From: Delftia acidovorans NBRC 14950
Lineage (GTDB): Bacteria > Pseudomonadota > Gammaproteobacteria > Burkholderiales > Burkholderiaceae_C
Reading direction: 5' to 3'
Assembly: GCF_001598795.1 (NCBI RefSeq)
Contig: NZ_BCZP01000020.1
Location: 60,001-92,000 of the forward strand
DNA: 32,000 nucleotides
The notes below the pieces were generated by a model. That model did no database searches. It was not told the DNA's origin and worked only from the letters and a program-made list of their open reading frames with translations. How positions within the stretch are numbered: the stretch's first letter is position 1; each line of letters opens with the position of its first letter. The translations under genes were made by a program, and so were the position numbers. Positions 14,248 through 26,762 of the stretch are shown in pieces.

Positions 14248-14275
14248 CCCCCCGCCCCGGCGTGCGCCACATCAT

Positions 14276-14290: not shown

Positions 14291-14340
14291 CCGCGCCGGA
14301 CTTCAACCAACCTTGTACCCGGGCCATTTACCTCGGGTCC

Positions 14341-14356
14341 AGGCATGGCGCTTGCC
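14341..14356 (+). promoter_or_regulatory. Sigma-54 type -24/-12 promoter motif (AGGCATGGCGCTTGCC)
   Basis: GG at 14342-14343 and GC at 14354-14355 give exact GG-N10-GC spacing, matching GGCAYG-N4-TTGC of the TGGCACG-N4-TTGC consensus. It lies 54 nt upstream of ATG 14409, in an intergenic region and in the correct orientation. Confidence 0.55.
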
Positions 14357-14408
14357 ACGGCAACACCAAGGCCGGCCCGGCCTGCCACCCCTACAGGAGC
14401 AACTTCCC

Positions 14409-14597
14409 ATGATCACTTCGGTACCTGCACCCCCTGTCACCCCGCCTGTCACCCCGCCTGTTGCGCCCCCGGTCAACCCGCCCCCCACCGAGCCGCTGGT
14501 TCCCCCCGTGGGCGACCCGCCACCGGCCCCGGCACCTTCGCCCTACTCCGACCCGCCCATTGCCCCGCCGCCACCGCCGCCGCAGGGGGTGCACTGA
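14409..14597 (+). CDS. 62-aa proline-rich mini-protein (PVTP PVTP PVAP PVNP ...)
   Basis: AGGAG at 14395-14399 upstream of the ATG, third-position GC high, preceded by a sigma-54 motif. It overlaps an alternative-frame extension of the TopIB ORF, so the coding status is uncertain. Confidence 0.5.
   Translation: MITSVPAPPVTPPVTPPVAPPVNPPPTEPLVPPVGDPPPAPAPSPYSDPPIAPPPPPPQGVH
14433..14480 (+). repeat. 4 x 12-bp in-frame tandem repeat inside the Pro-rich ORF
   Basis: Units are CCTGTCACCCCG x2, then CCTGTTGCGCCC and CCGGTCAACCCG. The unit resembles the LigD linker repeat (CCCGTCACC...). Confidence 0.8.
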
Positions 14598-14659
14598 GCT
14601 CCGCGCCAGCCAGGGGCAGGGCAGCGAACGCAGACGGCCCCGGCCCTGCCCTGACCTAT

Positions 14660-15730
14660 GTGAACGACCGCATGCCCGGCTGGCGCCGCGTGCGGCACGG
14701 CAAGGGCTTTTCCTACGTGGCGCAGGACGGCAAGCCCGTGCGCGATGCCCAGGCGCTGGCGCGCATCCGCAAACTGGCCATTCCACCGGCCTATGTGGAT
14801 GTCTGGATCTGCCCCGATCCCCAGGGCCACCTGCAGGCCACGGGCCGCGATGCCCGGGGCCGCAAGCAGTACCGCTACCACCCGCAGTGGCAGGAACAGC
14901 GCAAGCAGGTCAAGTTCGACCGCATGCACGCCTTTGGCCTCCACCTGCCCGCCATCCGTCGGGCGGTGGCGCGCGACCTCAAGCCTGGCCGGCCGCAGCT
15001 GGACACCGTGGTGGCCGCCATCGTCTGGCTGCTGGACTGCACGGCCCTGCGCATAGGCAATGACGAGTATTCCGAGAGCAATGGCTCCTACGGCCTCACC
15101 ACGCTCAGAAACCGCCATGCCCAGGTGCACGCGGGTGAGCTGACGCTGAGCTTCAAGGGCAAGAGCGGCGTGCTGCAGCAGGCCCGCGTGTCCGACCGGG
15201 CCGTGGCCCGCATCGTCAAGCGCTGCCAGGAGCTGCCGGGCCAGCGGCTGTTCCAGTTCATCGACGATGAAGGCGAAGTCCACCATGTGCGATCCGAGCA
15301 CGTGAACGACTACATCCGCAGGATATGCGGCAAGGCTGCGGCCCATGGGGCTGATACCGCAGATGTCGGAGATGCCGCAGACAGCCCGGATTTCAGTGCC
15401 AAGGATTTCCGCACCTGGCATGCCAGCGTGTACGCGCTGGAACTGGCGCTGACCGCAGGCAAGGCAGCGCCGCAAGAAGGCGCAGGCACCAGTGCGGCGG
15501 CGTTGAACGCTCTGGTCACGCAGGTCGCCCGGCGCCTGGGCAATACCTGTGCGGTTTGCCGCAAGTTCTACATCCATCCCCAGGTGCTGGCCCTGTGCGA
15601 GCAACCTGGGCAGGACATTCCCACCGCACCGGACAGGCGCCCGCGCGGACTGAGCGCCAAGGAATGCCTGTTCCTGGGGCTGCTGCAGCCCCGCAGCGGC
15701 CGGCGCGCCAGTCGCCAGCCGCCTCCCTGA
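14660..15730 (+). CDS. Bacterial (poxvirus-like) type IB DNA topoisomerase
   Basis: LTYVNDRMPGWRR N-terminal block, then RIGN, SFKGKSG, AKDFRTWHAS, LGNT and CRKFYIHPQV (catalytic Tyr) in the order expected for the TopIB catalytic residues. The start is uncertain: GTG 14660, ATG 14672 and far-upstream ATGs are all possible. Confidence 0.85.
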   Translation: MNDRMPGWRRVRHGKGFSYVAQDGKPVRDAQALARIRKLAIPPAYVDVWICPDPQGHLQATGRDARGRKQYRYHPQWQEQRKQVKFDRMHAFGLHLPAIRRAVARDLKPGRPQLDTVVAAIVWLLDCTALRIGNDEYSESNGSYGLTTLRNRHAQVHAGELTLSFKGKSGVLQQARVSDRAVARIVKRCQELPGQRLFQFIDDEGEVHHVRSEHVNDYIRRICGKAAAHGADTADVGDAADSPDFSAKDFRTWHASVYALELALTAGKAAPQEGAGTSAAALNALVTQVARRLGNTCAVCRKFYIHPQVLALCEQPGQDIPTAPDRRPRGLSAKECLFLGLLQPRSGRRASRQPPP

Positions 15731-15749
15731 TCCCGCCTCCCGCACGCCC

Positions 15750-15767
15750 GGCAAACACTGTGCCTGT
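15750..15767 (+). promoter_or_regulatory. GGCAA-N5-GTGCCTGT motif (GG-N10-GC spacing) upstream of the EBP gene
   Basis: GGCAAACACTGTGCCTGT lies about 100 nt upstream of ATG 15863. The same GGCAA-N5-GTGCCTGT string recurs at 21931-21948. Confidence 0.35.
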
Positions 15768-15862
15768 GGACTGACAAAGACGCCCGCATGCTCGCCCTTA
15801 AACTGGCCGATCATGAAATTTTGTCAAAACGCGTTGCGGCGAGGACCCCTGGAGGCCATGCA

Positions 15863-17494
15863 ATGAACCACGTGCTGATCGTCGATGACGATGCGGATTC
15901 CGCAGCGACCATGCGCGAACTCGTGGGCGTGGACCGCTTCTCGGTCGCCGTGGCCCACACCCTGCGCGACGCGCGCCGGCAGATGGCCATGCAGCCGCCC
16001 AGCCTGGTGCTGCTGGACCTGCAACTGCCCGATGGCAACGGCATGGACCTTTTCGGCGACCAGCAGGTGCCGCAGGACTCGCAGATCGTGCTGGTGACCG
16101 GCCACGCCAGCCTGGACTCCTCCATCGAGGCCCTGCGCCGCGGCGCCATGGACTACCTGGTCAAGCCCGTGGGCATCGGGCGGCTGGAGGACATTCTTTC
16201 GCGCTTTCTGATCCCCACGGCTGGCCTGCCGGAGACGGGCACCAGCACCGTCGCGGGCGCGGCCTTCGACCAGATCACCCCGCAAGACAGGCCCGGCGCC
16301 GGCTACTGCGCGCAGGAAGGGCGCTTTGGCCGGCTGTGGGGCGGCTCGCCCCCCATGCAGCGGCTGTACCAGCAGATGGAGCGCGTGGCGGGTACCTCGG
16401 TCACGGTCTTTCTGACGGGCGAAAGCGGCACCGGCAAGGAAGTCGTGGCACAGACCCTGCATGAGCTGAGCCAGCGGCGCAGCCGGCCCTTCCTGGCGGT
16501 CAACTGCGGTGCCATTTCTCCGCACCTGATCGAAAGCGAGATCTTTGGCCATGAAAAGGGAAGCTTCACCGGCGCCGACCGCCAGCACCAGGGCTTTTTC
16601 GAGCGCGCGGCCACGGGCACGCTGTTTCTGGACGAAATCACGGAAATGTCGATGGAGCTGCAGGTCAAGCTGCTGCGCGTGCTGGAGACCGGGCGCTTCA
16701 TGCGCGTGGGCTCCACACAGACGCTGCAGACCGATGTGCGCGTGATCGCCGCCACCAACCGCTGCCCCTACGAGGCCGTGGCCAGCGGCAAGCTGCGCGA
16801 AGACCTGCTGTACCGCCTGAACGTCTTCCCCATCGAGCTGCCGCCGCTGCGCGAGCGCCTGACCGACGTTCCGCTGCTTGCGCAGCATTTCATGGAGGCC
16901 ATCTCCCAGCGCGAGGGCCAGGCCAAGCAATTCACGGCATCGGCCCTCAAGCAGCTTGCGCAATACAGCTGGCCCGGCAATGTGCGCGAGTTGCGCAATG
17001 CCGTGCAGCGCGCCTATGTGATGGAGCCCGGCCCGCTGGTGGGCCAGGAATGGCTGCCCCGGCCGCCCGTGGCCATTGCCCAGCAGCCGGCCCCGGTGCA
17101 TCCGGCCGCCCACGCCCTGCACCTGCCCCAAGTGCCGGAAATGCCGCAAATGCCACATATGCCGCAGGCGGGGTCCATGCCAATGAGCGCGCCATTGACC
17201 ACGCCATTGACTGCGCCCACCTCCCCCACCATCACAGCGCATGCGCCCGCCGACCACGCCCCTGCAGCCGCCACCTACGACCTGCCCGACACGGAGCCGG
17301 CCACCATACAGCTGCCCATCGGCATGACCATGGCGCAGGCCGAGCGGTTGCTCATCCAGGCCACGCTCAAGCAGTGCAAGTACCAGAAGGAACGCACGGC
17401 GGCCGTGCTCGGCATCAGCCTCAAGACCCTGTACAACCGGCTCAGGGACTATGGGGGGGGCAAAAAGGGCGAAACGGACGCCGAGCCCGGCTGA
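15863..17494 (+). CDS. Sigma-54-dependent response regulator (REC - AAA+ - Fis-type HTH; NtrC family)
   Basis: GGAGG lies 7 nt upstream of the ATG. The REC domain has LVLLDLQLPDGNG and YLVKP. The AAA+ domain has GESGTGKE, a GSFTGA variant of GAFTGA, and LFLDEI. The C-terminal HTH is KERTAAVLGISLKTLYNRLRDYG, and a Pro/Met-rich linker precedes it. Confidence 0.9.
   Translation: MNHVLIVDDDADSAATMRELVGVDRFSVAVAHTLRDARRQMAMQPPSLVLLDLQLPDGNGMDLFGDQQVPQDSQIVLVTGHASLDSSIEALRRGAMDYLVKPVGIGRLEDILSRFLIPTAGLPETGTSTVAGAAFDQITPQDRPGAGYCAQEGRFGRLWGGSPPMQRLYQQMERVAGTSVTVFLTGESGTGKEVVAQTLHELSQRRSRPFLAVNCGAISPHLIESEIFGHEKGSFTGADRQHQGFFERAATGTLFLDEITEMSMELQVKLLRVLETGRFMRVGSTQTLQTDVRVIAATNRCPYEAVASGKLREDLLYRLNVFPIELPPLRERLTDVPLLAQHFMEAISQREGQAKQFTASALKQLAQYSWPGNVRELRNAVQRAYVMEPGPLVGQEWLPRPPVAIAQQPAPVHPAAHALHLPQVPEMPQMPHMPQAGSMPMSAPLTTPLTAPTSPTITAHAPADHAPAAATYDLPDTEPATIQLPIGMTMAQAERLLIQATLKQCKYQKERTAAVLGISLKTLYNRLRDYGGGKKGETDAEPG
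17132..17167 (+). repeat. 4 x 9-bp in-frame tandem repeat in the EBP linker
   Basis: The units GTGCCGGAA / ATGCCGCAA / ATGCCACAT / ATGCCGCAG encode VPE MPQ MPH MPQ. Confidence 0.8.
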
Positions 17495-17505
17495 CACCCG
17501 CCTGC

Positions 17506-17521
17506 AGGCACGCTGCTTGCC
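17506..17521 (+). promoter_or_regulatory. Sigma-54 type -24/-12 promoter motif (AGGCACGCTGCTTGCC)
   Basis: GGCACG-N4-TTGC matches the consensus core exactly. GG is at 17507-17508 and GC at 17519-17520. It sits in a 64-nt intergenic gap, 39 nt upstream of ATG 17559. Confidence 0.6.
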
Positions 17522-17522
17522 A

Positions 17523-17550
17523 CCTTGCTTGCACCTTCGTGCAACCAAGG
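17523..17550 (+). promoter_or_regulatory. Hairpin straddling the predicted sigma-54 start site and covering the SD of the 17559 gene
   Basis: CCTTG (17523-17527) pairs with CAAGG (17546-17550) and TTGCAC (17529-17534) with GTGCAA (17539-17544), leaving one internal mismatch and a 4-nt loop. The 3' arm runs into the AAGGA SD-like sequence. Confidence 0.4.
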
Positions 17551-17558
17551 ACAAGCCC

Positions 17559-18086
17559 ATGGACTCCTCTCCTCCCCGCGCCTACGGTGTCTTCAAGCCC
17601 GTGGGCCACATGGTGGTCTCGTTTCCCACAGCTGCGCAGGCCGATGACGGCGTGGCCGCGCTGCAGGCGCTGGACCTGCCCGCCCAGGACATCCAGCGCT
17701 ATACCGACCGGGAAATGCTGGCCCAGATCGATGAAGACCTGCGCCAGGCCAGCCCCGTTGCCGCCGTGGGCCAGGAGCTCAACCTGGTCAAGGCCCACCA
17801 GGCCCTGGCCGAACGCGGCTACCACTGGCTGGTGGTGCGCGTGGACAACGACGAGGCCGCACGCATGGCCGCCGATGCCCTGAAGGCCGCCGGCGCCGAG
17901 CGCGCCCAACTGTATGGCCGCTTCATCATCGAGGAATTGATAGAGCACGCCGCCGACCTGCCCCAGGTCAGCGAGTCGCCCGACCGGGGCCTGGATGCCC
18001 AGACGCCTTCGGGCCATGAGGCGGAGCGTGCAGAGATTCGCCCTGCCTCGGACCAGGACACCGCCCCTGACAAGCCGAGGCTCTGA
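17559..18086 (+). CDS. Hypothetical soluble protein, apparently with two similar alpha/beta modules and an acidic disordered tail
   Basis: ATG 17559 follows AAGGA. VVSFPTAAQADDGVAALQALDL and VVRVDNDEAARMAADALKAAGA look like an internal duplication. No family was recognised with confidence. Confidence 0.7.
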   Translation: MDSSPPRAYGVFKPVGHMVVSFPTAAQADDGVAALQALDLPAQDIQRYTDREMLAQIDEDLRQASPVAAVGQELNLVKAHQALAERGYHWLVVRVDNDEAARMAADALKAAGAERAQLYGRFIIEELIEHAADLPQVSESPDRGLDAQTPSGHEAERAEIRPASDQDTAPDKPRL

Positions 18087-18102
18087 ACGGCCTGCAGGAG
18101 CC

Positions 18103-18118
18103 GGGCACGCCGATTGCC
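18103..18118 (+). promoter_or_regulatory. Sigma-54 type -24/-12 promoter motif (GGGCACGCCGATTGCC)
   Basis: GGCACG-N4-TTGC is an exact core match. GG is at 18104-18105 and GC at 18116-18117, 41 nt upstream of ATG 18158. Confidence 0.6.
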
Positions 18119-18154
18119 CTTGACCACCAACCGTAACTTTTTCTCAAGGGCAAT
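18113..18154 (+). promoter_or_regulatory. Perfect 11-bp inverted repeat joining the -12 element to the SD region of the YeaQ-like gene
   Basis: ATTGCCCTTGA (18113-18123) and TCAAGGGCAAT (18144-18154) are exact reverse complements separated by 20 nt. The right arm contains the AAGGG SD-like sequence 7 nt from the ATG. Confidence 0.5.
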
Positions 18155-18157
18155 GCC

Positions 18158-18436
18158 ATGGACTTCCTCATCTGGCTGATGGTGGGTGGCCTGATCGGCT
18201 GGATTACCAGCATGGTCACGAACACCCAGGCCGAGCAGGGCATTTTGCTCAACGTGGTCATAGGCGCCATTGGCGCACTGCTGGGCGGCTGGCTGCTGGC
18301 GCCGATGCTGGGGCCTTCGGCCATGAATGCGCAGACGGAGGCGCCGGCCACCTCCATGTCCATCTTCGTCTCTCTGGCCTGCGCCGTTGCGCTGCTGGCC
18401 ATCTTCAACCTGTGCAAGCGGAGCGTGCCGCGCTGA
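18158..18436 (+). CDS. GlsB/YeaQ/YmgE-family stress-response membrane protein (transglycosylase-associated protein family)
   Basis: A 92-aa protein whose FLIWLMVGGLIGWITSMV...GILLNVVIGAIGALLGGWLL pattern is typical of this small-membrane-protein family. Confidence 0.85.
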   Translation: MDFLIWLMVGGLIGWITSMVTNTQAEQGILLNVVIGAIGALLGGWLLAPMLGPSAMNAQTEAPATSMSIFVSLACAVALLAIFNLCKRSVPR

Positions 18437-18454
18437 AAGCGGCCAGGCAGCCTG

Positions 18455-20026
18455 TCAGTCCAGCCTTTGCGCCAGGCAGTCCTGCGCCGCCATGGCCACG
18501 CGCGGCAGCACCAGTGAGACCGCCAGGCAGCGGCCATGCTCACCCTCGGCCCGCACCACGCCACCGCGCTCCAGGCACAGGCGGCGCGCCAGGCTCAGGC
18601 CGCAGGTGGCGTCCGCATCGGCATCGTTCAATGGAGTGAAGACAGGCGGCGGGTCCTGCCTTTCCACACTTTCCAGCCGTGGCGCGCCCGCCTCGCCAGT
18701 ACCGGAGCCGGTGCTGGCGGCGCCCGCCCCGTGGGCCAGGGCCTCGATGCGGATCTCCACCAGCGCATTCCCGCGAGAAGCTGCGGCCTGGTCCTCGGGC
18801 AGGGGCCGGGCGGCCATGTGCACCTGCGCGCCATCGGTCATCGCTTCGCGGATGGCAAGAAAAATACTGATCAGCGCCAGCTCCAGCTCATCCGGGTCCA
18901 CATGCACGCCCAATCGCGGCGCCGGCTGGCCGGGCTGACTGGCCTCGGCAGGCTCCGCCACCTCCATCGCCATGCGCTTGCCCAGCACCACGGCCAGCGT
19001 GCCCTGCAGGCCGGGCAGCCAGCGGTACAGGTCCACCACCAGCGCATGCGTGCAATGGCGCGCCCCAAAACGCAGCAGTTGCTGCGTGAGGCGGCTGGCC
19101 GTGTCCACCGAGCGCAGCATGGCCTGGGCGGGCAGGCGCAGGCCCGGGTCCTCGGAGCGCCGCTCTATCAGATAGGCGCTGTTGCTCAGAATGCCCAGCT
19201 GGTTGTTGAACTCATGGGAAAACCGGCCTGCCAGCCGCCCCACCACCTGCAGGCGTTCGCTCTGGAGACGGGCAGCGGCCTCTTCGAGGCCGGCAGCGTC
19301 CACCGCAGCGCCATCGGGCCGGCCGGCATCACCGCCGCCCTGGCCCTGGCCATGGTCTTGCGCATTGCCGCCCATTGCCGGCAACACCAGGGCCGCGCTG
19401 CCCCGCAGCGCCAGCCGCGCCAATCCCAGGCCCGCCACCGCAAACAAAACGATGGCCACCCAGATCACCCCCTTCAGGGGCCGGGAGCATGCGGGGTCCA
19501 GCGCAGAACAGGGGACCCAGCTCACCCAGGTCCAGCCCTGGGCGGACTTGCTGAAGAAGGCCCGCAGCGGCCCGCCCTGCGCATCTGGCAGATCCAGCCA
19601 GCCCTGCGAAGCGTCCTGCCCTGCGCCCTGCCCTGCGCTTTGCTCTGCGCCTTGCCCCGCACTTTTCACGCCGGGCGCAGCCTGCGCCAGGCTGGCCGCC
19701 AGCCGTTCGCTGAAATCGGCGGGCAAGGCAGGCAGGTCGGCTGCCGCGCCGGGCCCGGCCGGCAGGGCGCGGCCTGTGCTGTCCACCAGAAAGCCGGGCC
19801 AGCCGGAGTCCAGCAAGGGCCGCAAGGCCGCCAGCACCTGGTCGGCGCCGGCCGTGCGCGGCTCCTTGTCCAGCAAATGGGCCACGGCCATGCTGCTGAC
19901 GCGCGCGGCCTGCTCCTGCGCCGCATGCTCGGATTGGTAGGCGCGCAACAGCAGCCAGGACGAGGCCGCCAGTACAAAGACCAGCAAGGCCAGCAGCAGC
20001 AGGACCAACCTCAGGCGTATGGACAT
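18455..20026 (-). CDS. Membrane sensor histidine kinase with intact H-box but degenerate ATP-binding (N/G1) motifs
   Basis: Start MSIRLRLVLLLLALLVFVLAA (first TM) and a second TM (VIWVAIVLFAVAGLGLA). The H-box is FSHEFNNQLGIL. In the CA domain the N-box position reads ISIFLAIREAM (no Asn) and the G1 position reads EALAHGAG (no Asp), while the G2-like CGLSLARR is retained. The 297 codons upstream of this Met in the ORF track are antisense to rpoN. Confidence 0.85.
   Translation of the reverse strand: MSIRLRLVLLLLALLVFVLAASSWLLLRAYQSEHAAQEQAARVSSMAVAHLLDKEPRTAGADQVLAALRPLLDSGWPGFLVDSTGRALPAGPGAAADLPALPADFSERLAASLAQAAPGVKSAGQGAEQSAGQGAGQDASQGWLDLPDAQGGPLRAFFSKSAQGWTWVSWVPCSALDPACSRPLKGVIWVAIVLFAVAGLGLARLALRGSAALVLPAMGGNAQDHGQGQGGGDAGRPDGAAVDAAGLEEAAARLQSERLQVVGRLAGRFSHEFNNQLGILSNSAYLIERRSEDPGLRLPAQAMLRSVDTASRLTQQLLRFGARHCTHALVVDLYRWLPGLQGTLAVVLGKRMAMEVAEPAEASQPGQPAPRLGVHVDPDELELALISIFLAIREAMTDGAQVHMAARPLPEDQAAASRGNALVEIRIEALAHGAGAASTGSGTGEAGAPRLESVERQDPPPVFTPLNDADADATCGLSLARRLCLERGGVVRAEGEHGRCLAVSLVLPRVAMAAQDCLAQRLD
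19614..19661 (-). repeat. 4 x 12-bp in-frame tandem repeat in the periplasmic region of the histidine kinase
   Basis: The plus strand reads TCCTGCCCTGCG / CCCTGCCCTGCG / CTTTGCTCTGCG / CCTTGCCCCGCA, encoding the AGQGAEQSAGQGAGQD tract. Confidence 0.75.
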
Positions 20027-20122
20027 GGGATCTTCGGGTAGGGCATCACGCGGCGCCTCCCGTGGAACGGAATTTTGGGCCCCCGGGGGCGGGACCGTGT
20101 GGAAGCTGGTGGACTGGTACAT

Positions 20123-20167
20123 GGCAAAGTTTGCAGAAAACCTTGCGCCCAAACGGCAATTTCTGCC
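20123..20167. promoter_or_regulatory. Two GGCA-N5-TGCC/TGCA dyads 32 bp apart in the HK/rpoN divergent spacer (candidate enhancer/UAS)
   Basis: GGCA AAGTT TGCA (20123-20135) and GGCA ATTTC TGCC (20155-20167). The centres are about three helical turns apart and lie 145-190 bp upstream of the -24/-12 motif at 20310. Confidence 0.35.
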
Positions 20168-20309
20168 GTGGACGCCATGACCGGCCCCGCTGTTCCAGAA
20201 CCGATCCCCCGCAGCGGCGGCAAAACCCTGGGCCCCGTGCCGCCTGCGCAGGGAGACCACAGCAGGTTTCGTGCCCAAAGTGTATCCAGACGATTCGCCG
20301 CCCGCATGG

Positions 20310-20325
20310 CGGCATGGAGCTTGCG
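20310..20325 (+). promoter_or_regulatory. Sigma-54 type -24/-12 promoter motif (CGGCATGGAGCTTGCG) in front of rpoN itself
   Basis: GG at 20311-20312 and GC at 20323-20324. The GGCATGG-N-GCTTGC core is nearly identical to the 14341 site. It lies 31 nt upstream of ATG 20355. Confidence 0.5.
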
Positions 20326-20354
20326 TCTTCGGGTCATCGCACCAAGGAGATGAA

Positions 20355-21917
20355 ATGGGTTCCATGCACCTCAGGGCGGACATACGCCAGTCCCAGACGC
20401 TTTCTCCCCGCCTGCAGCTTGCAGTGCGGATGCTGCAGATGTCCTCGCTGGACTTTGCCGCCGTGGTGCGCAGCAAGCTGGAGGACAACCCGTTCCTGGA
20501 AGACCCGCAAGATGCGCAGGACGGCGAGTACGAACAGGGGCTGCTCGACGGCAAGGAGCTGGGTGAAGAGGACCGGGAAGGCGGCATGGGCAGGCTGGCC
20601 CCGGAGGCAGGCCTGGCCCCGGACACGGGCATGGATGACGGCATCGGCATGGGCATCGGTCTGGACATGGACCGCGATCTCCCCGGCATGCAGCACCCGC
20701 CCGACCCGGCCGACCACCTGCCCGGCCCCGCCACCGAACCCGCCGACGACCGCGACCTGTGGCTGGCCGACATGCATACCGGCGCGCGCCAGGGGGTGGA
20801 TGGAGAAGGCACCGCCATGGATCTGGCGGCCTGCGAGACCACGCTGGCCATGCACCTGCACGGCCAGCTCAATGTGATGACGATGACGCCGCGCGACCTG
20901 TGCATGGCCCGCGCCATCGTGGAGTCGCTGGACGACGACGGCTATCTGCGCACCGACCTGCAGGAGCTGGCCGGCCTGCTGGCCCTCACCCCCGCACCTG
21001 ACGCGCAGGAAATGCTCATTGCCCTGCGCCTGGTGCAATCGCTGGACCCGGCCGGCGTGGCCGCCCGCAGCGTGGGCGAATGCCTGTTGCTGCAATGCCC
21101 GCAGATCGGCGATGCCCACCTGCGCCAGCTGGCCCAGGCCATGGTGCAGGACCACATGGATGCGCTGGCCGCCCGCGACGTGCCCCGGCTGGCCCGGGCG
21201 CTGCAGGTGCCACCCGCGCAGATCACGCAGGCGCTGGACTGCATACGTCGGCTGAACCCCAGGCCGGGCTGGAACTTCGGCTCCTCCCACGTGGACTACA
21301 TCGTTCCCGACGTGATCGTGCGCCGGGGCCAGAACGGCTGGGACGTGCACCTCAACCCCGCGGTCGTGCCGCGCGTGCGCCTGAACCGCGTCTACGAGCA
21401 GCTGTTTCAGCGCCACCGCCGCAGCGGCCAGAACCAACTGGCCGACCACCTGCAGGATGCGCGCTGGACGGTGCGCAACGTGGAGCAGCGCTTTTCCACC
21501 ATCCTCGACGTGGCGCAGGCCATCGTGCGCAAGCAGCAGCTGTTCCTGGAGTTCGGCGCCATGGCCATGAAGCCGCTGGTGCTGCGCGAGATTGCCGAGG
21601 AAGTGGGCGTGCACGAGTCCACCGTCTCGCGCGTGACCAACAACAAATACATGGCCACGCCCACGGGCGTGTTCGAGCTCAAGCATTTCTTCTCGCGCCC
21701 CATGCTCAGCGCCAGCGGCAATGCCTGCTCGGCCACGGCCATCCGCGAGCTGATCGGCGACATCATCGCGGCCGAGTCCGATGCCCGGCCGCTGTCGGAT
21801 GTTGAAATCGCACGCCAGCTCGGTGCCCAGGGCCTGGTCGTGGCGCGCCGCACCGTCACCAAATACCGCCAGCTGCTGCGCATAGAACCGGCCGACCGGC
21901 GCAGGCGCCACGCCTGA
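20355..21917 (+). CDS. rpoN: RNA polymerase sigma-54 factor (RpoN), non-canonical genomic context (probable second paralogue)
   Basis: AAGGAG lies 5 nt upstream of the ATG. Region I is SQTLSPRLQLAVRMLQMSSLDF...NPFLE, followed by an acidic region II. The C-terminal HTH is EVGVHESTVSRVTNNKYMATPTGVFELKHFF and the RpoN box is ARRTVTKYRQ. Confidence 0.92.
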   Translation: MGSMHLRADIRQSQTLSPRLQLAVRMLQMSSLDFAAVVRSKLEDNPFLEDPQDAQDGEYEQGLLDGKELGEEDREGGMGRLAPEAGLAPDTGMDDGIGMGIGLDMDRDLPGMQHPPDPADHLPGPATEPADDRDLWLADMHTGARQGVDGEGTAMDLAACETTLAMHLHGQLNVMTMTPRDLCMARAIVESLDDDGYLRTDLQELAGLLALTPAPDAQEMLIALRLVQSLDPAGVAARSVGECLLLQCPQIGDAHLRQLAQAMVQDHMDALAARDVPRLARALQVPPAQITQALDCIRRLNPRPGWNFGSSHVDYIVPDVIVRRGQNGWDVHLNPAVVPRVRLNRVYEQLFQRHRRSGQNQLADHLQDARWTVRNVEQRFSTILDVAQAIVRKQQLFLEFGAMAMKPLVLREIAEEVGVHESTVSRVTNNKYMATPTGVFELKHFFSRPMLSASGNACSATAIRELIGDIIAAESDARPLSDVEIARQLGAQGLVVARRTVTKYRQLLRIEPADRRRRHA

Positions 21918-21930
21918 AACCTGGCGTGGT

Positions 21931-21948
21931 GGCAAGCGGCGTGCCTGT
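21931..21948 (+). promoter_or_regulatory. GGCAA-N5-GTGCCTGT motif (GG-N10-GC spacing) downstream of rpoN and upstream of the small-gene cluster
   Basis: GGCAAGCGGCGTGCCTGT lies about 140 nt upstream of ATG 22087 and shares GGCAA and GTGCCTGT with the 15750 site. Confidence 0.35.
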
Positions 21949-22086
21949 CCAAAAGCCTGTCCGGCCCGTCCTGCCAAGCCCCACCGCCGTGCAGCGGCTT
22001 GTCGCTCCCGCAGGGCATGCCTTGTCCGACAGTTGCAGGCCGCCGCCCGGCCTAAGGTGAAAGCTCATGGACTGAAGGAGCCCGCC

Positions 22087-22401
22087 ATGGACAACTCACC
22101 CCGCCGAATGCATGCCCCCCTCGAACGCCAGCGCAGCGAGAACAACCACATCCGCGACGGACGCTGGCCCCTGCGCATTGGCGCACTCACCGCCGCCGTC
22201 GCACTGATCCTGGTGCTGATGTTCAACTTCATGGCCCCCAAGGGCCGGCTGGATGCGCCCAGCGCCACTGGAGCGACTGGAACGCCTTCGCCCTCACCGT
22301 CTCCCGCGACACAGTCCGTGTCGCCGCCCGCGCCTTCCGCCGCGCCGCAGCAGGCTGATCCGGCCACGACGCCTGCCCCCACCTCCACGCCTGCGCGCTG
22401 A
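22087..22401 (+). CDS. Single-pass membrane protein with Pro/Ser/Thr/Ala-rich extracytoplasmic tail
   Basis: GAAGGAG lies 6 nt upstream of the ATG. There is a basic N-terminus, one TM (IGALTAAVALILVLMFNFM), then TGTPSPSPSPATQSVSPPAPSAAPQQADPATTPAPTSTPAR. Confidence 0.55.
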   Translation: MDNSPRRMHAPLERQRSENNHIRDGRWPLRIGALTAAVALILVLMFNFMAPKGRLDAPSATGATGTPSPSPSPATQSVSPPAPSAAPQQADPATTPAPTSTPAR

Positions 22402-22449
22402 GCCGGCATCCACCGCTCATCACCACACACCCCCAAAAGGACACGCACC

Positions 22450-22644
22450 ATGAATCACCCTCTGCCCCACGCACCCAATATTCCCCAGGTGCCGACCACG
22501 CCCAACGACCCAGTGGCCCCCGATGATCCCAACCGCCAGCCCGGCCGCCCGCGCGGGCCCGAGCCCATCGACCCGCCCACCACGGCGCCGCCCATCGAGC
22601 TGCCACCGTCCCCGGAGCAGGAACAGACGCGCAAGGGAGAGTGA
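22450..22644 (+). CDS. 64-aa proline-rich mini-protein
   Basis: AAAAGGA lies upstream of the ATG. The sequence is MNHPLPHAPNIPQVPTTPNDPVAPDDPNRQPGRPRGPEPIDPPTTAPPIELPPSPEQEQTRKGE, and the stop is 1 nt before the next ATG. Confidence 0.5.
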   Translation: MNHPLPHAPNIPQVPTTPNDPVAPDDPNRQPGRPRGPEPIDPPTTAPPIELPPSPEQEQTRKGE

Positions 22645-22645
22645 C

Positions 22646-22846
22646 ATGCCACAAGGTGACAAATCGGCCTATACCGATAAGCAAAAGCGCCAGGCTCGGC
22701 ATATCGAAGACAGCTACGAGTCGCGCGGCGTGGGCCACGAAGAAGCTGAAAAGCGCGCCTGGGCCACCGTGAACAGGCAAAGCGGCGGCGGCAAGCTGTC
22801 GGGCTCGGGCCGGGGCAGGCAAGCGGGCCAGTCCAAGTCAAAATAA
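22646..22846 (+). CDS. 66-aa highly charged hydrophilic protein (conserved-looking KxYTDKQKRQAxHIE...RAWATVN core, Gly/Ser/Lys tail)
   Basis: GGGAGAG SD precedes the ATG and the gene is tightly coupled to the preceding ORF. MPQGDKSAYTDKQKRQARHIEDSYESRGVGHEEAEKRAWATVNRQSGGGK resembles small stress-associated proteins I recall from other proteobacteria, but I cannot name the family with confidence. Confidence 0.65.
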   Translation: MPQGDKSAYTDKQKRQARHIEDSYESRGVGHEEAEKRAWATVNRQSGGGKLSGSGRGRQAGQSKSK

Positions 22847-22901
22847 CCGCGACTGCGGCCAGGCCCGAGACCCGAGACCCGCAATTGCCGTGGGAGAAAG
22901 T

Positions 22902-25900
22902 GTGAACTCAGAAGACAGTTTTCGATTCCTGCCGCAGCGCGGCGAAATGCCGGCACGCGTGCGTTCCCACGACTGGGCGGCCACGCCCCTGGGATCGCCG
23001 GATGGCTGGCCGCAGAACCTGCGCAATGCCGTGAGCCTGGCGCTGGGCTCGCGCTTTCCCATCACCATCTGGTGGGGCGAAGACTTCCGCCTGATCTACA
23101 ACGATGGCTATATCCCCTTCCTGGGAACCAGCAAGCACCCCCAGGCGCTGGGCCAGGCCGGCGCGCACTGCTGGAGCGAGATCTGGAGCGATATCGGCCC
23201 CATGCTGGAAGGCGTGATGCGTACCGGCGAGGCCACCTGGTCCACCGACGCCCGCTACTTCTTCGACCGCGACCTGCCCCAGGAAGAGGTCTTCGTGACC
23301 TTCACCTACGGCCCCATCCTGGCCGATGACGGCGTCACCGTGCAGGGCGTGTTCTGCCCCTGCACCGAGACCACGGAAAAAATCGTCAGCCGCAGGCGCC
23401 TGGAGACGCTGCACCGCCTGGGCATACGCACGCTGGACATGCACAACGCCAGGGACGCCGCCCAGAAAGTCTGCGCCGTGCTGGACGAGAACCCCTACGA
23501 CGTGCCCTTCGCCATCATCTACGAATGCGTGGACACCCCTGCCGCGGGCAGCGCAGGCGCCAGCGGCCCGGCCTTCAGGATGCTCTGCGCCACGGGCATG
23601 GATATGGACATGGAGCTGGCGGCCGACCCCTCGCGCTGGCCGCTGGACCGGGCCGTGCAATCCGATCCATCGGACCGAACGGACCAGGCGCATCAGGCGG
23701 CCCAGCCGGGCCAGCCCGCCAATGTGGAACTGGCGTCCTTGGGCCTGTCCCTGCCCGGCGGCCCCTGGCCCGAGGTCTCGCGTCTGGCGCGCATCGTGCC
23801 TGTGCGCTGGTCGGGCGACGGCCAGGTCTCGGGCGTGATGGTGCTGGGCGTCAGCCCGCGCCGTCCGCTGGATGTGGACTATTGCGCCTTCCTCGACATG
23901 GTGGCAAGCCACACGGGCAGCGTGGTCGCGCACGCCCAGGCCTACGAGCAGGAAGCGCGGCGCGCCAAGGCCCTGGCCGAGGTGGACCACGCCAAGACCG
24001 TGTTCTTCTCCAACGTCAGCCACGAGCTGCGCACCCCGCTGACCCTGATCCTGGGCCCGCTGGAAGATGCCCTGCGCGAGCACGGCGGCCAGGTGCCGGC
24101 CGGGCAGACGCAGATGATCCACCGCAACGCGCTGCGCCTGCAAAAACTGGTCAATGCCCTGCTGGACTTCTCGCGCATCGAGGCCGGGCGCATGCAGGCC
24201 AGCTACGAGCCCACGGACCTGGCCCGCACCACGGCCGAGCTGGCCAGCATGTTCCGCTCGGCCGTGGAGCAAGCCGGCCTGCGGCTGCGCGTGGATTGCC
24301 CGCCGCTGGACGGACCGGTCCATGTGGACCGCGACATGTACGAAAAAATCGTGCTCAACCTGTTGTCCAACGCCTTCAAGTTCACGCTGCAAGGCGAAAT
24401 CGCAGTGGCGCTGCGCGATGTGCCCGATGTGTCCGATGTGTCCGATGCGCACGGCGCGGGCGGGGCCGATGGTGCGGTGGAGCTGTCCGTCACCGACACC
24501 GGATCGGGCATTGCGCCCCAGCACCTGCCCCATCTCTTCCAGCGTTTTCACCGCATTCCCGGCAAGCCGGCCCGCACGCACGAGGGCACGGGCATCGGCC
24601 TGGCCATGGTGCAGGAGCTGGCACGACTGCATGGCGGCACCGTCACGGTCAGCAGCACGGAGGGCGAAGGCAGCCGCTTCACCGTGCGCCTGCCCAGGGG
24701 GCATGCGCATCTTCCGGCCGAGCACCGGCCCGCGCGCCCGCCTGCATCGCACCCGCAGGTGGATGAGGCCCTGCGCTGGCTGCCCGGCGAGCCCGCCCCG
24801 GCTGCCAGCGACGAAGTCAGGCCCATGCAGCGGGACATGCGCGGTACGCAGCCCCCACGCGCCCGCATCGTCTGCGCCGATGACAACGCCGACATGCGCA
24901 GCTACATCGGCCAGTTGCTGGAGCCGCTGTATGAAGTGGAGATCGTGGGCGATGGCCGCGCCGCGCTGGCCAGCATCCACCGCCAGCGGCCCGACCTGGT
25001 GCTGGCCGACGTGATGATGCCCGTGCTCGACGGCTTCGAGCTGCTGCATGCGCTGCGCAGTGACGAGACCACGCGCGCCATTCCCGTCATCATGCTGTCC
25101 GCGCGGGCCGGCCAGGAGGCCCAGGTCGAAGGCCTGCGCGCGGGCGCGGACGACTACCTGGTCAAGCCCTTTTCGGCGCGCGAGTTGCTGGCGCGCATCG
25201 CATCGCTGCTGCAGCTGGTGCGTGTGCGCGAACAGGTCCACGCCGCCGTGCAGGCCAACGAGAAAAAGCTGCGCGCCATCATCGACCAGATGCCTGCGGG
25301 CGTGGGCGTCTCCGACATGAGCGGCACCATGGTATTGAGCAATGCGCTCATGGACCGCTTCGTGCCGCGCGCCATTCCGTCCACCCTGGCGGACCGCCTG
25401 CCGCGCTGGAAGGGATGGGATGACAAGGGCCAGCCCATTGCCCCCGAGAACTGGCCCGGCAAGCGCGCGCTGCGCGGCGAAGTGGTCATGCCGGGTCTGG
25501 AGATGCTGCACACCGACGACGATGGCCGCGAATGGTGGATGCGCGTCAGCTGCGCGCCGCTGCGCGATGACGACGGCCAGCTCATAGGCACCTGCTCCGT
25601 CATACAGGACATCACCGAACTCAAACAGGCCGAGTACCACCTCAAGGAAGCCGACCGACGCAAGGACGAATTCCTGGCCACGCTGGCGCATGAGCTGCGC
25701 AATCCGCTGGCGCCCATCAGCCACGGCCTGCAAATCCTCAAGCGCACCGCCAGCGGCGACGACAGCGTGCGCCACAGCCACGAGATGCTGGAGCGCCAGG
25801 TCAACCACATGATCCGCATGGTGGACGACTTGCTGGAGGTCTCGCGCATCACCACGGGCAAGGTCCAGTTGCGCAAGGAACTGGTGGATCTGAACGATGT

Positions 25901-26762
25901 GCTGCAAGGCGTGGTGGCGGCCAGCGGCGCGGTCATGGAGGCAGGCAGCCACCAGTTGCGCCTGGAGCTGCCCGCCGCGCCCGTATCGCTGCTGGCCGAC
26001 CCGATGCGGCTGGCGCAGATGGTCTCCAACCTGCTCAACAATGCCGCCAAGTACTCGCACTCCGGCGGCCACATCGTTCTGTCCGCCTGGACCGATGGCG
26101 CGCAGGCCGTGGTCTCGGTACGCGACAACGGCATCGGCATCCCGCCCGCCCTGCTGGGCAAGGTGTTCGATCTGTTCATGCAGGTGGACCGCAACGGCCG
26201 CCGTGGGCAGGGCGGCCTGGGCATCGGGCTGACCCTGGTGCGCAGCCTGGTCGAGATGCACGGCGGCAGCGTGCAGGCGCTCAGCGGAGGCAAGGGCCAG
26301 GGCAGCGAATTCAGGCTGCACCTGCCCCTGCCCACCCAGGCGCAGCCCCTGGCGGGACAGGCACCAAATGCCCAGCCCGAGGATGCAACGGCCTTCGGCC
26401 GCATCCTGGTGGTCGATGACAACATCGACGCCGCCGACACCCTGGCCATGCTGCTCAGGCTGCTGGGCGCCGAAGTCGAGATTGCCCGCGACGGCCCCGG
26501 CGCCCTGGCCATGCACGCGGCGTTCAGGCCCGAAGTGGTGCTGCTGGACATCGGCCTGCCCGGCATGGACGGCCTGGAGGTCGCCCGCCGCATCCGTGCC
26601 GAGCACGGCCGCGACCAGGTCGTGCTGATCGCGCTCACGGGCTGGGGGCAGGAGGAGGACCTGAGACGATCGCGGGAAGCCGGCATGGACCACCACCTGG
26701 TCAAACCCGTGAGCTTCGACACGCTCGAGCGTCTGCTGGCGGGCCTGCGTCCCCTGCCGTGA
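22902..26762 (+). CDS. Hybrid sensor with two complete transmitter-receiver units (PAS/GAF-like sensor - HisKA/HATPase - REC - PAS - HisKA/HATPase - REC)
   Basis: GTG 22902 lies 5 nt after GGGAG (alternative GTG at 22890). Unit 1: SHELRTPL, LNLLSNAFKF, DTGSGI, GTGIGLAMV, then REC (VLADVMMPVLDG, YLVKPF). A PAS domain follows (IIDQMPAGVGVSD). Unit 2: AHELRNPL, NLLNNAAKYS, DNGIGI, GGLGIGLTLV, then REC (VLLDIGLPGMDG, HLVKPV). Confidence 0.9.
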   Translation: MNSEDSFRFLPQRGEMPARVRSHDWAATPLGSPDGWPQNLRNAVSLALGSRFPITIWWGEDFRLIYNDGYIPFLGTSKHPQALGQAGAHCWSEIWSDIGPMLEGVMRTGEATWSTDARYFFDRDLPQEEVFVTFTYGPILADDGVTVQGVFCPCTETTEKIVSRRRLETLHRLGIRTLDMHNARDAAQKVCAVLDENPYDVPFAIIYECVDTPAAGSAGASGPAFRMLCATGMDMDMELAADPSRWPLDRAVQSDPSDRTDQAHQAAQPGQPANVELASLGLSLPGGPWPEVSRLARIVPVRWSGDGQVSGVMVLGVSPRRPLDVDYCAFLDMVASHTGSVVAHAQAYEQEARRAKALAEVDHAKTVFFSNVSHELRTPLTLILGPLEDALREHGGQVPAGQTQMIHRNALRLQKLVNALLDFSRIEAGRMQASYEPTDLARTTAELASMFRSAVEQAGLRLRVDCPPLDGPVHVDRDMYEKIVLNLLSNAFKFTLQGEIAVALRDVPDVSDVSDAHGAGGADGAVELSVTDTGSGIAPQHLPHLFQRFHRIPGKPARTHEGTGIGLAMVQELARLHGGTVTVSSTEGEGSRFTVRLPRGHAHLPAEHRPARPPASHPQVDEALRWLPGEPAPAASDEVRPMQRDMRGTQPPRARIVCADDNADMRSYIGQLLEPLYEVEIVGDGRAALASIHRQRPDLVLADVMMPVLDGFELLHALRSDETTRAIPVIMLSARAGQEAQVEGLRAGADDYLVKPFSARELLARIASLLQLVRVREQVHAAVQANEKKLRAIIDQMPAGVGVSDMSGTMVLSNALMDRFVPRAIPSTLADRLPRWKGWDDKGQPIAPENWPGKRALRGEVVMPGLEMLHTDDDGREWWMRVSCAPLRDDDGQLIGTCSVIQDITELKQAEYHLKEADRRKDEFLATLAHELRNPLAPISHGLQILKRTASGDDSVRHSHEMLERQVNHMIRMVDDLLEVSRITTGKVQLRKELVDLNDVLQGVVAASGAVMEAGSHQLRLELPAAPVSLLADPMRLAQMVSNLLNNAAKYSHSGGHIVLSAWTDGAQAVVSVRDNGIGIPPALLGKVFDLFMQVDRNGRRGQGGLGIGLTLVRSLVEMHGGSVQALSGGKGQGSEFRLHLPLPTQAQPLAGQAPNAQPEDATAFGRILVVDDNIDAADTLAMLLRLLGAEVEIARDGPGALAMHAAFRPEVVLLDIGLPGMDGLEVARRIRAEHGRDQVVLIALTGWGQEEDLRRSREAGMDHHLVKPVSFDTLERLLAGLRPLP
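24417..24452 (+). repeat. 4 x 9-bp in-frame tandem repeat inside the first HATPase domain of the hybrid kinase
   Basis: The units GATGTGCCC / GATGTGTCC / GATGTGTCC / GATGCGCAC encode DVP DVS DVS DAH. Confidence 0.8.

Follow-up and report, generated by a model that had tools for sequence, protein, structure and literature searches.

A predicted sigma-54-dependent promoter of the second rpoN gene in Delftia acidovorans, and two promoter classes that differ at position -11

Second rpoN genes in related bacteria

In Ralstonia solanacearum the second rpoN gene, rpoN2, is preceded by TGGCACAGCCTTTGCA 63 nt upstream, and an rpoN2::lacZ fusion loses its expression when rpoN1 is mutated (Ray et al. 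2015, PMC4371752). Candidate regulators of Ralstonia rpoN2 are NtrC and the enhancer-binding proteins (EBPs) encoded next to it, RSp1667/1668 (Lundgren et al. 2015, PMC4676750). The Ralstonia rpoN2 mutant is without phenotype, no regulon is known, and the second rpoN of the Burkholderiales has been called enigmatic (PMC4371752, PMC4676750). In Burkholderia pseudomallei, RpoN2 is needed for the stationary-phase expression of katE (Diep et al. 2015, PMC4745423). RpoN1 and RpoN2 of Cereibacter (Rhodobacter) sphaeroides discriminate promoters at position -11 and work with cognate EBPs (Poggio et al. 2006, as cited in PMC11999139 and PMC3162934). An enrichment of sigma-54 promoters ahead of rpoN genes has also been found in silico (PMC12316311).

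The window analysed here is a stretch of 32,000 nucleotides from Delftia acidovorans NBRC 14950, and it contains a sigma-54 paralogue gene that we call rpoN2. As in Ralstonia, this second rpoN is not in the lptB/hpf context, it has a -24/-12 element upstream (at 63 nt in Ralstonia, at 30 nt in Delftia), and it adjoins one or more EBP genes and the gene of a hybrid kinase. Expression of the Ralstonia gene is conditional and requires RpoN1, as may also hold for the Delftia gene. The two loci also differ. Their RpoN2 proteins are only 42–44% identical, and at -11 each of the two sigma-54 sites of the Ralstonia locus carries A, with no -11C class, whereas Delftia-type loci are dense with -11C promoters before stress genes.

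Because RpoN1-dependent expression of rpoN2 has been shown in R. solanacearum, the core idea of a cascade is already known, and finding a sigma-54 promoter before another second rpoN, with a cascade as its reading, adds a member to a demonstrated kind. The new point is the base at -11, a purine in the rpoN2 promoters and C in the surrounding ones. The preliminary description took as background that rpoN does not itself depend on sigma-54, which is too broad a statement in view of the rpoN2 genes of Ralstonia and of R. etli, the latter as cited in PMC3162934.

The rpoN2 gene and its predicted promoter

The features of the locus are collected in Table 1. RpoN2 matches all three sigma-54 domains of Pfam: the N-terminal, activator-interacting region I (PF00309, E=3e-13, residues 7–49), the core-binding domain (PF04963, E=5e-56) and the C-terminal DNA-binding domain (PF04552, E=7e-57). 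Its LSPRLQ..LLQMS motif lines up with E. coli sigma-54 in the alignment, its HTH is HESTVSRVTNNKYM, and its RpoN box is ARRTVTKYR; HESTVSRV and ARRTVTKYR are invariant across the RpoN2 alignment. The protein is 98% identical to that of Delftia sp. SD018. The ATG is in frame, and the MGSM it begins is the N-terminus conserved in the orthologues. Region II, of about 101 residues, contains 26 acidic and 6 basic ones. It is thus long and acidic as described before, but this acidic Gly/Pro-rich expansion is lineage-specific and mostly missing in D. tsuruhatensis, a congener in which it is thus dispensable.

Two RpoN proteins are listed for D. acidovorans SPH-1 (Francke et al. 2011, suppl. file 1), so that the gene described here is probably a second rpoN copy in its genome as well. 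The same source gives Diaphorobacter sp. TPSY a single rpoN. The best 120 protein matches to RpoN2 are all of the RpoN2 type. Against the RpoN2 of Ralstonia and Burkholderia the identity is 42–47%, similar to the published distance between RpoN1 and RpoN2. Neither the window nor any one of 80 related loci contains a homologue of Hpf, PtsN, LptA or RapZ, in agreement with the earlier placement of the gene outside the lptB/hpf context.

Table 1. Coordinates of the features discussed, numbered from the first letter of the window
Feature	Position	Strand	Remarks
Class II (-11 C) site	14341..14356	+	ahead of Pro-rich small ORF (14409-14597) and topoisomerase IB gene; PWM 21.4 bits
NtrC-type EBP gene	15788..17494	+	Pfam REC, AAA+ with GSFTGA loop, HTH_8
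Predicted class II promoter	17506..17521	+	ahead of orf17 (17559-18086); PWM 18.8 bits
Predicted class II promoter	18103..18118	+	ahead of YeaQ/GlsB-type gene (18158-18436); PWM 23.7 bits
Divergent membrane histidine-kinase-like gene	18455..20026	-	degenerate catalytic domain; H-box FSHEFNNQLG
Dyad 1	20123..20135	.	GGCAAAGTTTGCA (GCAAA-G-TTTGC; GGCA-N5-TGCA); -188; candidate second UAS half
Dyad 2	20153..20169	.	ACGGCA-ATTTC-TGCCGT; -156; candidate EBP site (UAS)
Predicted class I -24/-12 promoter of rpoN2	20310..20325	+	CGGCATGGAGCTTGCG (also written cGGCAtGGagcTTGCg and cGGCAtGgagcTTGCg); -11 = G
Shine-Dalgarno AAGGAG	20344..20349	+	5 nt 5' of rpoN2 ATG; conserved in Delftia
rpoN2	20355..21917	+	520 aa, complete sigma-54 paralogue
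Large hybrid histidine kinase gene	22890..26762	+	downstream of rpoN2; Pfam

The -24/-12 site ahead of rpoN2 has its GG at 20311-12 and its GC at 20323-24, with a spacing of exactly 10 nt (GG-N10-GC), and it departs at three positions from the 16-nt sigma-54 consensus (TGGCAC-N5-TTGCW-like). It lies about 30 nt 5' of the ATG. The presence of a site here had been described correctly; its last base is 29 nt before the ATG, not 31 nt. Transcription is predicted to start around 20336, which would make the leader some 19 nt long.

A loose search with the 16-nt consensus that allowed as many as three mismatches proved uninformative (68 matches in the window against 83 expected). It is useless in GC-rich DNA and was therefore replaced by a core pattern and by PWMs. 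The core GGCAY-N5-TTGC occurs six times in the window against 1.66 expected; all six sites fall within 14.3–22.0 kb and all are intergenic, the intergenic fraction being 7.6% (p ~2e-7). PWMs for rpoN2 promoters (class I) and for the surrounding promoters (class II) were trained on orthologous sites without Delftia. They single out 20307-20328 as class I and five other intergenic sites as class II. Over the whole window the rpoN2 site, at 19.5 bits, is the only outstanding class I match, the next one reaching 11.9.

The site is also conserved. Of 78 orthologous loci, 75 have GGCA[CT]-N5-[TG]TGC within 300 nt upstream of rpoN2, where the background is 0.05 per 300 nt, although these loci are phylogenetically related and the counts overstate their independence. 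They come from many genera of the Comamonadaceae/Sphaerotilaceae, with RpoN2 proteins of 51–93% identity. In the 75 loci the site is always oriented towards rpoN2 and lies 45–165 nt upstream of the ATG. This conservation over the background shows that the site is not due to chance, and on these comparative grounds the -24/-12 motif noticed in the preliminary description is a real, conserved promoter of sigma-54 type belonging to the rpoN paralogue. A simple sigma-70 scan found no sigma-70 consensus promoter in 19950-22150, where it must be considered that high-GC promoters often escape such scans. The simple sigma-70 and terminator scan gave nothing relevant, and an Rfam search of 11000-23500 gave no match.

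Upstream of the promoter are two dyads, whose GGCA starts are 32 bp apart, at -188 and -156 when counted from the -24 GG. Within the window alone such dyads are not enriched (2 found, 3.35 expected), so their support comes entirely from the comparative data. An element of the type TTGC-N-GCAA / GGCA-N5-TGCC accompanies 33 of 72 rpoN2 promoters (46%), compared with 20 of 418 other sites (4.8%) and 92 of 3240 random positions (2.8%), and its positions in the orthologous rpoN2 promoters cluster at -145 to -190. The tandem dyads pointed out earlier match the position of this conserved element, which appears specific to rpoN2 promoters and is a candidate EBP-binding UAS. Dyad 1 sits in a block of about 36 nt that is invariant in three Delftia species and resembles the element cGGCAAtaTTTGCAGCAA of loci L012 and L016; dyad 2 is of the element type seen in the orthologous promoters but is degraded in D. 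tsuruhatensis. The exact sequence TTGCCGCAA, 193 nt upstream of the palindromic site before the EBP gene, looked like a shared UAS and was dropped because it is absent from D. acidovorans and from other loci.

Two promoter classes and the genes around rpoN2

The rpoN2 promoters have a purine (G or A) at -11 in 69 of 72 cases and C in one; G, found in 63%, departs from the textbook W. In the vicinity of rpoN2, the remaining sigma-54-type promoters have C at this position in 320 of 422 sites, and for the 217 distinct sites that precede recurring gene families the fraction reaches 88%. Their pattern is GGCAC-GnCGn-TTGCC with C at -11. The PWMs sort the sites of the window into the same two classes. 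The rpoN2 promoter reaches 11.0 bits on the PWM of class II, compared with 16.9–23.7 for the five class II sites, and with its different -11 base and UAS it does not belong to the promoter class of the presumptive regulon. The window's 14341 site, AGGCATGGCGCTTGCC, is identical to the rpoN2 site at 13 of 16 positions, as the close resemblance claimed for the two implied. The likeness is nevertheless superficial, since the -11 base that separates the classes is not the same in the two. The regions upstream of class II promoters were searched for a dyad in common; the search found no shared UAS, just other class II sites nearby and, weakly, ACGA-N8-TCGT (12/200). From the 285 aligned sites we infer that each class may be read by its own sigma-54 paralogue.

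Across the loci, class II sites precede genes for YeaQ, BON, DUF883, hemerythrin, PRC-barrel, outer-membrane barrel, receiver and kinase proteins. The orf17 family follows such sites in 12 loci, and the family of the YeaQ/GlsB-type gene (PF04226) in 19. Downstream ORFs were picked with a GC3 filter, owing to which the low-GC loci L005 and L007 gave no downstream ORF calls. These families are typical general-stress proteins, which suggests a stress function for the regulon. The sites at 15750 and 21931 lie in reverse orientation. They could be read on the plus strand, as promoters of the EBP gene and of the small ORF at 22087, but this was rejected because the minus-strand match is consistently better; elsewhere, sites homologous to them appear to drive genes in divergent or convergent arrangement. 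A PWM scan found no sigma-54 site for the KatE, Ku and LigD genes of the window.

Candidate signalling genes flank rpoN2 on both sides. The NtrC-type EBP probably starts at M26 (15863), since the alignments with orthologues begin at residues 22–26. The product of 18455-20026 has a weak HisKA match (E=0.11) and matches the ZraS kinase in the PDB (E=3e-4), and homologues of it are found near rpoN2 in many loci. The sensor kinase from which rpoN2 was said to diverge is thus confirmed, as a degenerate one that retains the H-box. Downstream, three small ORFs (22087-22401, 22450-22645, 22646-22846) occupy the interval between rpoN2 and the hybrid kinase gene, which is possibly co-transcribed with rpoN2; a kinase directly 3' of rpoN2 is found in many loci.

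A proposed cascade, its alternatives and its relatives

The best reading of these observations, and a rather probable one, is a cascade in which the housekeeping sigma-54 (RpoN1) and an EBP switch on rpoN2, and RpoN2 serves the -11C stress promoters. The site at 20310-20325 would be a genuine sigma-54-dependent promoter that transcribes rpoN2. The lack of a sigma-70 consensus suggests that it is the sole one. If so, RpoN2 can not make its own first molecules, and the initiating holoenzyme would carry RpoN1. This holoenzyme would be activated by an EBP bound at the dyad element about 155–190 bp upstream, possibly the neighbouring NtrC-type protein, with signals reaching the EBP from the neighbouring histidine kinases. 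RpoN2 would then direct RNA polymerase to the class II promoters near its gene, in the window those of the Pro-rich ORF with TopIB, of orf17 and of YeaQ, and elsewhere those of the BON, DUF883, hemerythrin, PRC-barrel, outer-membrane barrel, receiver and kinase genes. The assignment of class I to RpoN1 draws on analogy and on the argument about the first molecules, which assumes that there is no additional sigma-70 promoter. The proposal made earlier, that the housekeeping sigma-54 together with the EBP switches on this copy, is consistent with the Ralstonia genetics (PMC4371752).

Positive autoregulation is the strongest alternative and seems unlikely. Here RpoN2 would read 20310-20325 itself once RpoN1 or leaky transcription had primed the system, forming a latch that might be bistable. 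RpoN2 does retain a canonical RpoN box and HTH. The RpoN2 proteins of Ralstonia and Burkholderia work at canonical E. coli promoters; they complement E. coli rpoN mutants, so canonical promoters are readable and RpoN2 may read its own. In vitro, the two RpoN proteins of Bradyrhizobium DOA9 bind to a shared set of promoters, and the sigma-54 promoters ahead of rpoN genes are interpreted in this way in PMC12316311. However, C at -11 separates the neighbouring families so sharply from rpoN2 (88% of 217 distinct sites versus 1/72), and the dyad UAS is found only at the rpoN2 promoter. Moreover, the Ralstonia rpoN2::lacZ fusion, on an integrative vector that we infer disrupts rpoN2, is still induced and rpoN1-dependent. 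The self-activating bistable latch proposed earlier therefore finds no support, the rpoN2 promoter being of another class (-11 purine, own UAS) than the presumptive regulon.

It is a good deal less probable that a sigma-54 holoenzyme at the site represses rpoN2, by negative autoregulation or by occlusion of an unrecognised sigma-70 promoter. The sigma-54 holoenzyme forms stable closed complexes, high-GC promoters may well have escaped the simple sigma-70 scan, and negative autoregulation of rpoN2 in B. japonicum was reportedly described by Kullik et al. (1991), a study cited in PMC3162934. Against repression stand the conserved dyad element that accompanies the site at a classical enhancer distance, the constant orientation and placement of the site in the 75 loci, and the positive dependence of the Ralstonia homologue on RpoN1. 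That the sites are chance matches, or the target of a dimeric transcription factor (a GGCA-N7-TGCC palindrome) with no promoter, is scarcely credible, for although this palindrome is perfect in five of the six sites of the window and the loose consensus is not enriched, the rpoN2 sites are non-palindromic (TTGCG/A with GGCAY across 68 distinct sequences), all sites share one asymmetry (GGCAC ... TTGC) facing a downstream ORF, and the 75/78 conservation remains.

For the proposed cascade, the comparative data offer a conserved promoter and an enhancer candidate for rpoN2, and a one-base code (-11 purine versus C) could explain how two sigma-54 proteins keep separate regulons in one cell. The candidate regulon consists of classical stress-protection genes. 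More tentatively, with chances somewhat short of even, the Comamonadaceae/Sphaerotilaceae may rely on RpoN2 for a general stress or dormancy response. Its own -11C code would insulate the regulon from RpoN1, and RpoN2 would be made only when RpoN1 and a specific EBP fire the -11 purine promoter. Sigma-54 requires an ATP-dependent activator at every promoter, and such a response would be ATP-gated and two-tiered, in a role like that of the general-stress sigma factors RpoS, EcfG and SigB. If true, sigma-54 paralogues would be told apart at -11 in a second, independent case, and a general-stress-like response would run on sigma-54.

The first case, that of Cereibacter, shares with Delftia two promoter classes that differ beside the -12 GC and a paralogue linked to its own EBP. 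Its specificity has been shown biochemically, whereas that of Delftia is read from aligned sites. Its functions are nif and flagella instead of stress proteins, and the excerpts of the two articles citing it note no sigma-54 to sigma-54 cascade.

On a Burkholderia replicon, TGGCATGGAAACTGCA lies about 45 nt before rpoN2, beside an EBP and a kinase gene. The order there is EBP, kinase and rpoN2, then sigma-54-preceded DUF1328, DUF3008, DUF3022 and trehalose genes, with sites that have G, A or T at -11 where the Delftia class II sites have C. In B. pseudomallei RpoN2 acts in stationary phase and in protection against oxidative stress, and in Delftia a large catalase gene lies 6 kb from rpoN2. 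Unlike the RpoN2-controlled katE of B. pseudomallei, Delftia katE has no sigma-54 site.

The general-stress systems of RpoS, EcfG and SigB differ in using another family of sigma factors, and the stress role in Delftia is read from gene content. Their sets resemble the presumptive Delftia regulon in its YeaQ, BON/OsmY-like, DUF883/ElaB-like, CsbD-like, YciE-like and PRC-barrel proteins. As in those sets, catalase and Ku/LigD genes are found near Delftia rpoN2, and control by sensing of the two-component type is common to both.

The rpoN2 promoter and its setting

The -24/-12 motif described ahead of rpoN2, the second sigma-54 gene, is present, with GG and GC spaced exactly 10 nt. It ends 29 nt ahead of the ATG, which is preceded by AAGGAG. 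A scan of the window with a degenerate sigma-54 consensus was uninformative. The core GGCAY-N5-TTGC has six matches where 1.66 are expected; all six lie within nt 14342–21945 and are intergenic, intergenic DNA making up 7.6% of the window.

The decisive evidence that the predicted rpoN2 site exceeds chance is comparative. A genome scan gave 80 loci with RpoN relatives at 51–93% identity, from Delftia, Comamonas, Acidovorax, Ottowia, Hydrogenophaga, Roseateles, Ideonella, Rubrivivax, Aquabacterium and many MAGs. GGCA[CT]-N5-[TG]TGC was found within 300 nt 5′ of rpoN on the coding strand in 75 of the 78 loci with an N-terminal match, against a background of 0.05 per 300 nt per strand in the same loci, and the total over all loci is 487 sites versus 93 in shuffles; because the loci are related, these counts are not independent events. 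Many of the loci share with the window its neighboring enhancer-binding protein (EBP), YeaQ, kinase, catalase, TopIB and Ku/LigD genes. The preliminary description placed the gene outside the lptB/hpf context, and indeed hpf, ptsN, lptA or rapZ adjoins rpoN in 0 of 80 loci.

Features of the window (gene map from Pfam scans; G+C content 67%)
Feature	Coordinates (nt)	Strand	Basis or remark
Liv-type ABC transporter	15–4658		Pfam
LigD	7939–10566		Pfam
Ku	10601–11578		Pfam
Gln/Asn-rich ORF	11795–12007		
Large catalase	12160–14247		Pfam
Pro-rich ORF, 62 aa	14409–14597		no Pfam match
Bacterial topoisomerase IB (TopIB)	end at 15730		Pfam
Class II site	15750–15765	minus	AGGCACAGTGTTTGCC, 16.9 bits
NtrC-type EBP	15788/15863–17494		Pfam: REC, AAA+, HTH_8
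orf17, 175 aa, unknown kind	17559–18086		
YeaQ/GlsB-type membrane protein	18158–18436		Pfam
Kinase-like gene	18455–20026	minus	
Dyads	starts 20123 and 20155		32 bp apart
Weak GG-N10-GC site	20261–20276	minus	GGGCACGAAACCTGCT
rpoN2 promoter site	20310–20325		
rpoN2	20355–21917		Pfam
Hairpin	21909–21929		CCACGCC-N8-GGCGTGG
Class II site	21931–21946	minus	AGGCACGCCGCTTGCC, 21.7 bits
Pro-rich ORF, 64 aa	22450–22645		no Pfam match
Small basic ORF	22646–22846		MPQGDKSAYTDKQKRQARHIEDSYESRG..., no Pfam match
Hybrid kinase, 1290 aa	22890–26762		preceded by three small ORFs after rpoN2
M20 peptidase, TctC, hemerythrin, Usp, 2OG-Fe oxygenase	beyond hybrid kinase		Pfam

RpoN2 has all three sigma-54 domains by Pfam, and the RpoN box is intact in the alignment. 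The protein is 98% identical to that of Delftia sp. SD018, 93% to that of D. acidovorans and 90% to that of D. tsuruhatensis. Its region II is acidic, as was noted earlier (26 D/E among 101 residues), and is mostly absent from D. tsuruhatensis RpoN in the alignment; it is thus a lineage-specific insert. The divergent gene, previously read as a sensor kinase, carries an H-box, a HisKA match (E=0.11) and a ZraS structure match (E=3e-4), and is a degenerate histidine kinase. The 7-bp GC-rich hairpin across the rpoN2 stop codon has no T-run; it may be a 3′-end stabilizer, or a transcription pause before the downstream small ORFs and hybrid kinase. A single polypeptide, the hybrid kinase, combines two HisKA/HATPase_c modules with two receiver domains, an unusual duplicated architecture.

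LigD, Ku, the Gln/Asn-rich ORF, the catalase and TopIB are grouped at nt 7939–15730 beside the sigma-54 module. The Gln/Asn-rich ORF follows 200 nt of unusually AT-rich DNA and is followed by a clean terminator. Such a set, for DNA-end repair and peroxide, is typical of survival in dormancy or desiccation. Scanning the window for both promoter classes (see below) gave no sigma-54 site for catalase, Ku or LigD, and their membership in the regulon is therefore not supported.

Two classes of promoter

The ORF downstream of every site was collected, with heuristic calling, and the products were clustered. The largest family is RpoN, with 72 sites in 70 loci. It is followed by a single-domain receiver protein (20 sites), YeaQ/GlsB and a large sensor kinase (19 each), a DUF883/ElaB-like protein and hemerythrin (18 each), an outer-membrane beta-barrel (16), a BON-domain lipoprotein (13) and the orf17 family (12). 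PRC-barrel proteins form a smaller set by Pfam; CsbD-like, YciE-like, phospholipase-D-like and glycosyltransferase families were recognized by eye only.

In position matrices, the 68 distinct rpoN sites have the consensus cGGCA(t/c)GGgngTTGC, and the next base is G (63%), A (32%) or C (1%); the consensus of the 217 other sites is GGCAC-G-n-C-G-n-TTGC, with C as the next base in 88%. The base at -11 is a purine in 69 of the 72 rpoN sites (class I); it is C, occasionally T, in essentially every other recurring family (class II). Matrices trained without the Delftia loci were run on both strands of the window. The rpoN site is the sole outstanding class I match, at 19.5 bits versus 11.9 for the next in 64 kb of two-strand sequence, and scores 11.0 bits on the class II matrix. 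Class II matches are found at 18100, 21928 (minus), 14338, 17503 and 15747 (minus), with 16.9–23.7 bits. The rpoN site had been likened to the site at 14341, ahead of a Pro-rich ORF and TopIB; the likeness holds, but the scores separate the two into different classes.

Across the 80 loci, the density of GGCA[CT]-N5-TTGCC is 0.13–0.33 per kb and flat to 10 kb on each side of rpoN2; base composition would predict roughly 0.006 per kb. The regulon of class II sites therefore occupies very large islands or is genome-wide.

Several sites and ORFs of the window have counterparts elsewhere. The strong class II site in the gap between TopIB and the EBP gene faces TopIB. A like-oriented site precedes EBP genes in 8 loci, driving a divergent TopIB gene in one (L039) and a small gene in another (L065). 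Since TopIB is co-oriented in Delftia and in loci L005 and L007, the window site is either a relic or else serves as an antisense promoter or sigma-54 roadblock. The near-perfect class II site beginning 14 nt past the rpoN2 stop is directed into rpoN2 in antisense. D. acidovorans has this site, and the strict pattern gives none in D. tsuruhatensis; its L005 homologue drives a convergent small hydrophilic gene, which Delftia lacks here. The site may serve as an antisense brake on rpoN2 that depends on RpoN2, or may be an orphan. Both Pro-rich ORFs are extremely proline-rich. The first lies immediately after a class II promoter and before TopIB, and Pro-rich ORFs like it are found behind class II sites at five further loci (cluster 20, among them L011 and L013). 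The small basic ORF resembles a family, MPQNSWSAKRERQYEHIK..., that sits behind class II promoters in 4 loci.

The upstream dyads

The two GGCA-N5-TGC(C/A) dyads described upstream of rpoN2 were recovered, dyad 1 at -188 and dyad 2 at -156. Dyad 1 is inside a block invariant across three Delftia species, and in D. tsuruhatensis dyad 2 has degenerated. For 67 non-redundant loci, dyads were enumerated over the 300 nt ahead of the rpoN promoter. TTGC-N-GCAA occurs in 25 loci (shuffled expectation 0.05), GGCA-N5-TGCC in 13 (0.7) and CGGCA-N5-TGCCG in 9 (0.15). The three patterns are overlapping readings of one putative element, roughly cgGCa-N4-TTGC-n-GCAAa, located mostly at -145 to -190 relative to the -24 GG. 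This element is specific to the rpoN promoter, because it lies upstream of 33/72 rpoN promoters versus 20/418 other sigma-54-type sites and 92/3240 random positions. No dyad shared among class II promoters was found.

The weak site facing the kinase gene scores low on both matrices; the 39-nt block that contains it (nt 20252–20290) does not vary among three Delftia species. Upstream of rpoN2, several other loci show a clear class II site in the divergent orientation.

Transcription of rpoN2 and known systems

The promoter, the enhancer-like element and a sigma-70 scan that found no recognizable promoter for rpoN2 support a predicted sigma-54-dependent transcription of the gene. If the -24/-12 site is the sole rpoN2 promoter, RpoN2 can not make its own first molecules, and the initiating holoenzyme carries the other sigma-54. 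In the simplest model, housekeeping RpoN1 with a dyad-binding EBP would transcribe rpoN2, and RpoN2, with an activator of its own, would then read stress-regulon promoters that carry -11C. This second activator may be the island EBP, controlled by the neighboring kinases. Of the two switches proposed earlier, the cascade from the housekeeping sigma-54 is supported and the bistable self-latch is not. RpoN2 feedback on its own promoter is the less likely course: the data give nothing positive for it, and the point in its favor is that Ralstonia and Burkholderia RpoN2 function at canonical E. coli promoters (PMC4745423, PMC4676750).

Two RpoN proteins are recorded in D. acidovorans SPH-1 (Francke et al. 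2011, suppl. file 1). In Cereibacter, the paralogues RpoN1 and RpoN2 tell promoters apart at -11 (PMC11999139; PMC3162934), the very position of the class split seen here. R. solanacearum rpoN2 has TGGCACAGCCTTTGCA 63 nt upstream, and its expression is abolished in an rpoN1 mutant (Ray et al. 2015, PMC4371752). A hybrid kinase gene and two EBP genes adjoin it; these EBPs and NtrC are candidate regulators according to Lundgren et al. (PMC4676750). A Burkholderia replicon carries an EBP, a kinase and rpoN2 with TGGCATGGAAACTGCA in front; behind these, sigma-54 sites accompany trehalose genes and small genes of stress type. Late-stationary katE expression in B. pseudomallei needs RpoN2 (PMC4745423). 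In a 2025 survey, rpoN genes preceded by a sigma-54 promoter were noted in several classes (PMC12316311). With these Ralstonia, Burkholderia and survey precedents, the idea of a sigma-54 cascade is already known. The Ralstonia and Burkholderia loci examined differ in being without a -11C promoter class, and the searched literature gave no account of this clade's rpoN2 system, its -11C class or its candidate stress-type regulon. A sigma-54 promoter before a second rpoN is, alone, one more case of something already demonstrated; the promoter-class dichotomy together with the rpoN2-specific enhancer-like element is a variant worth testing.
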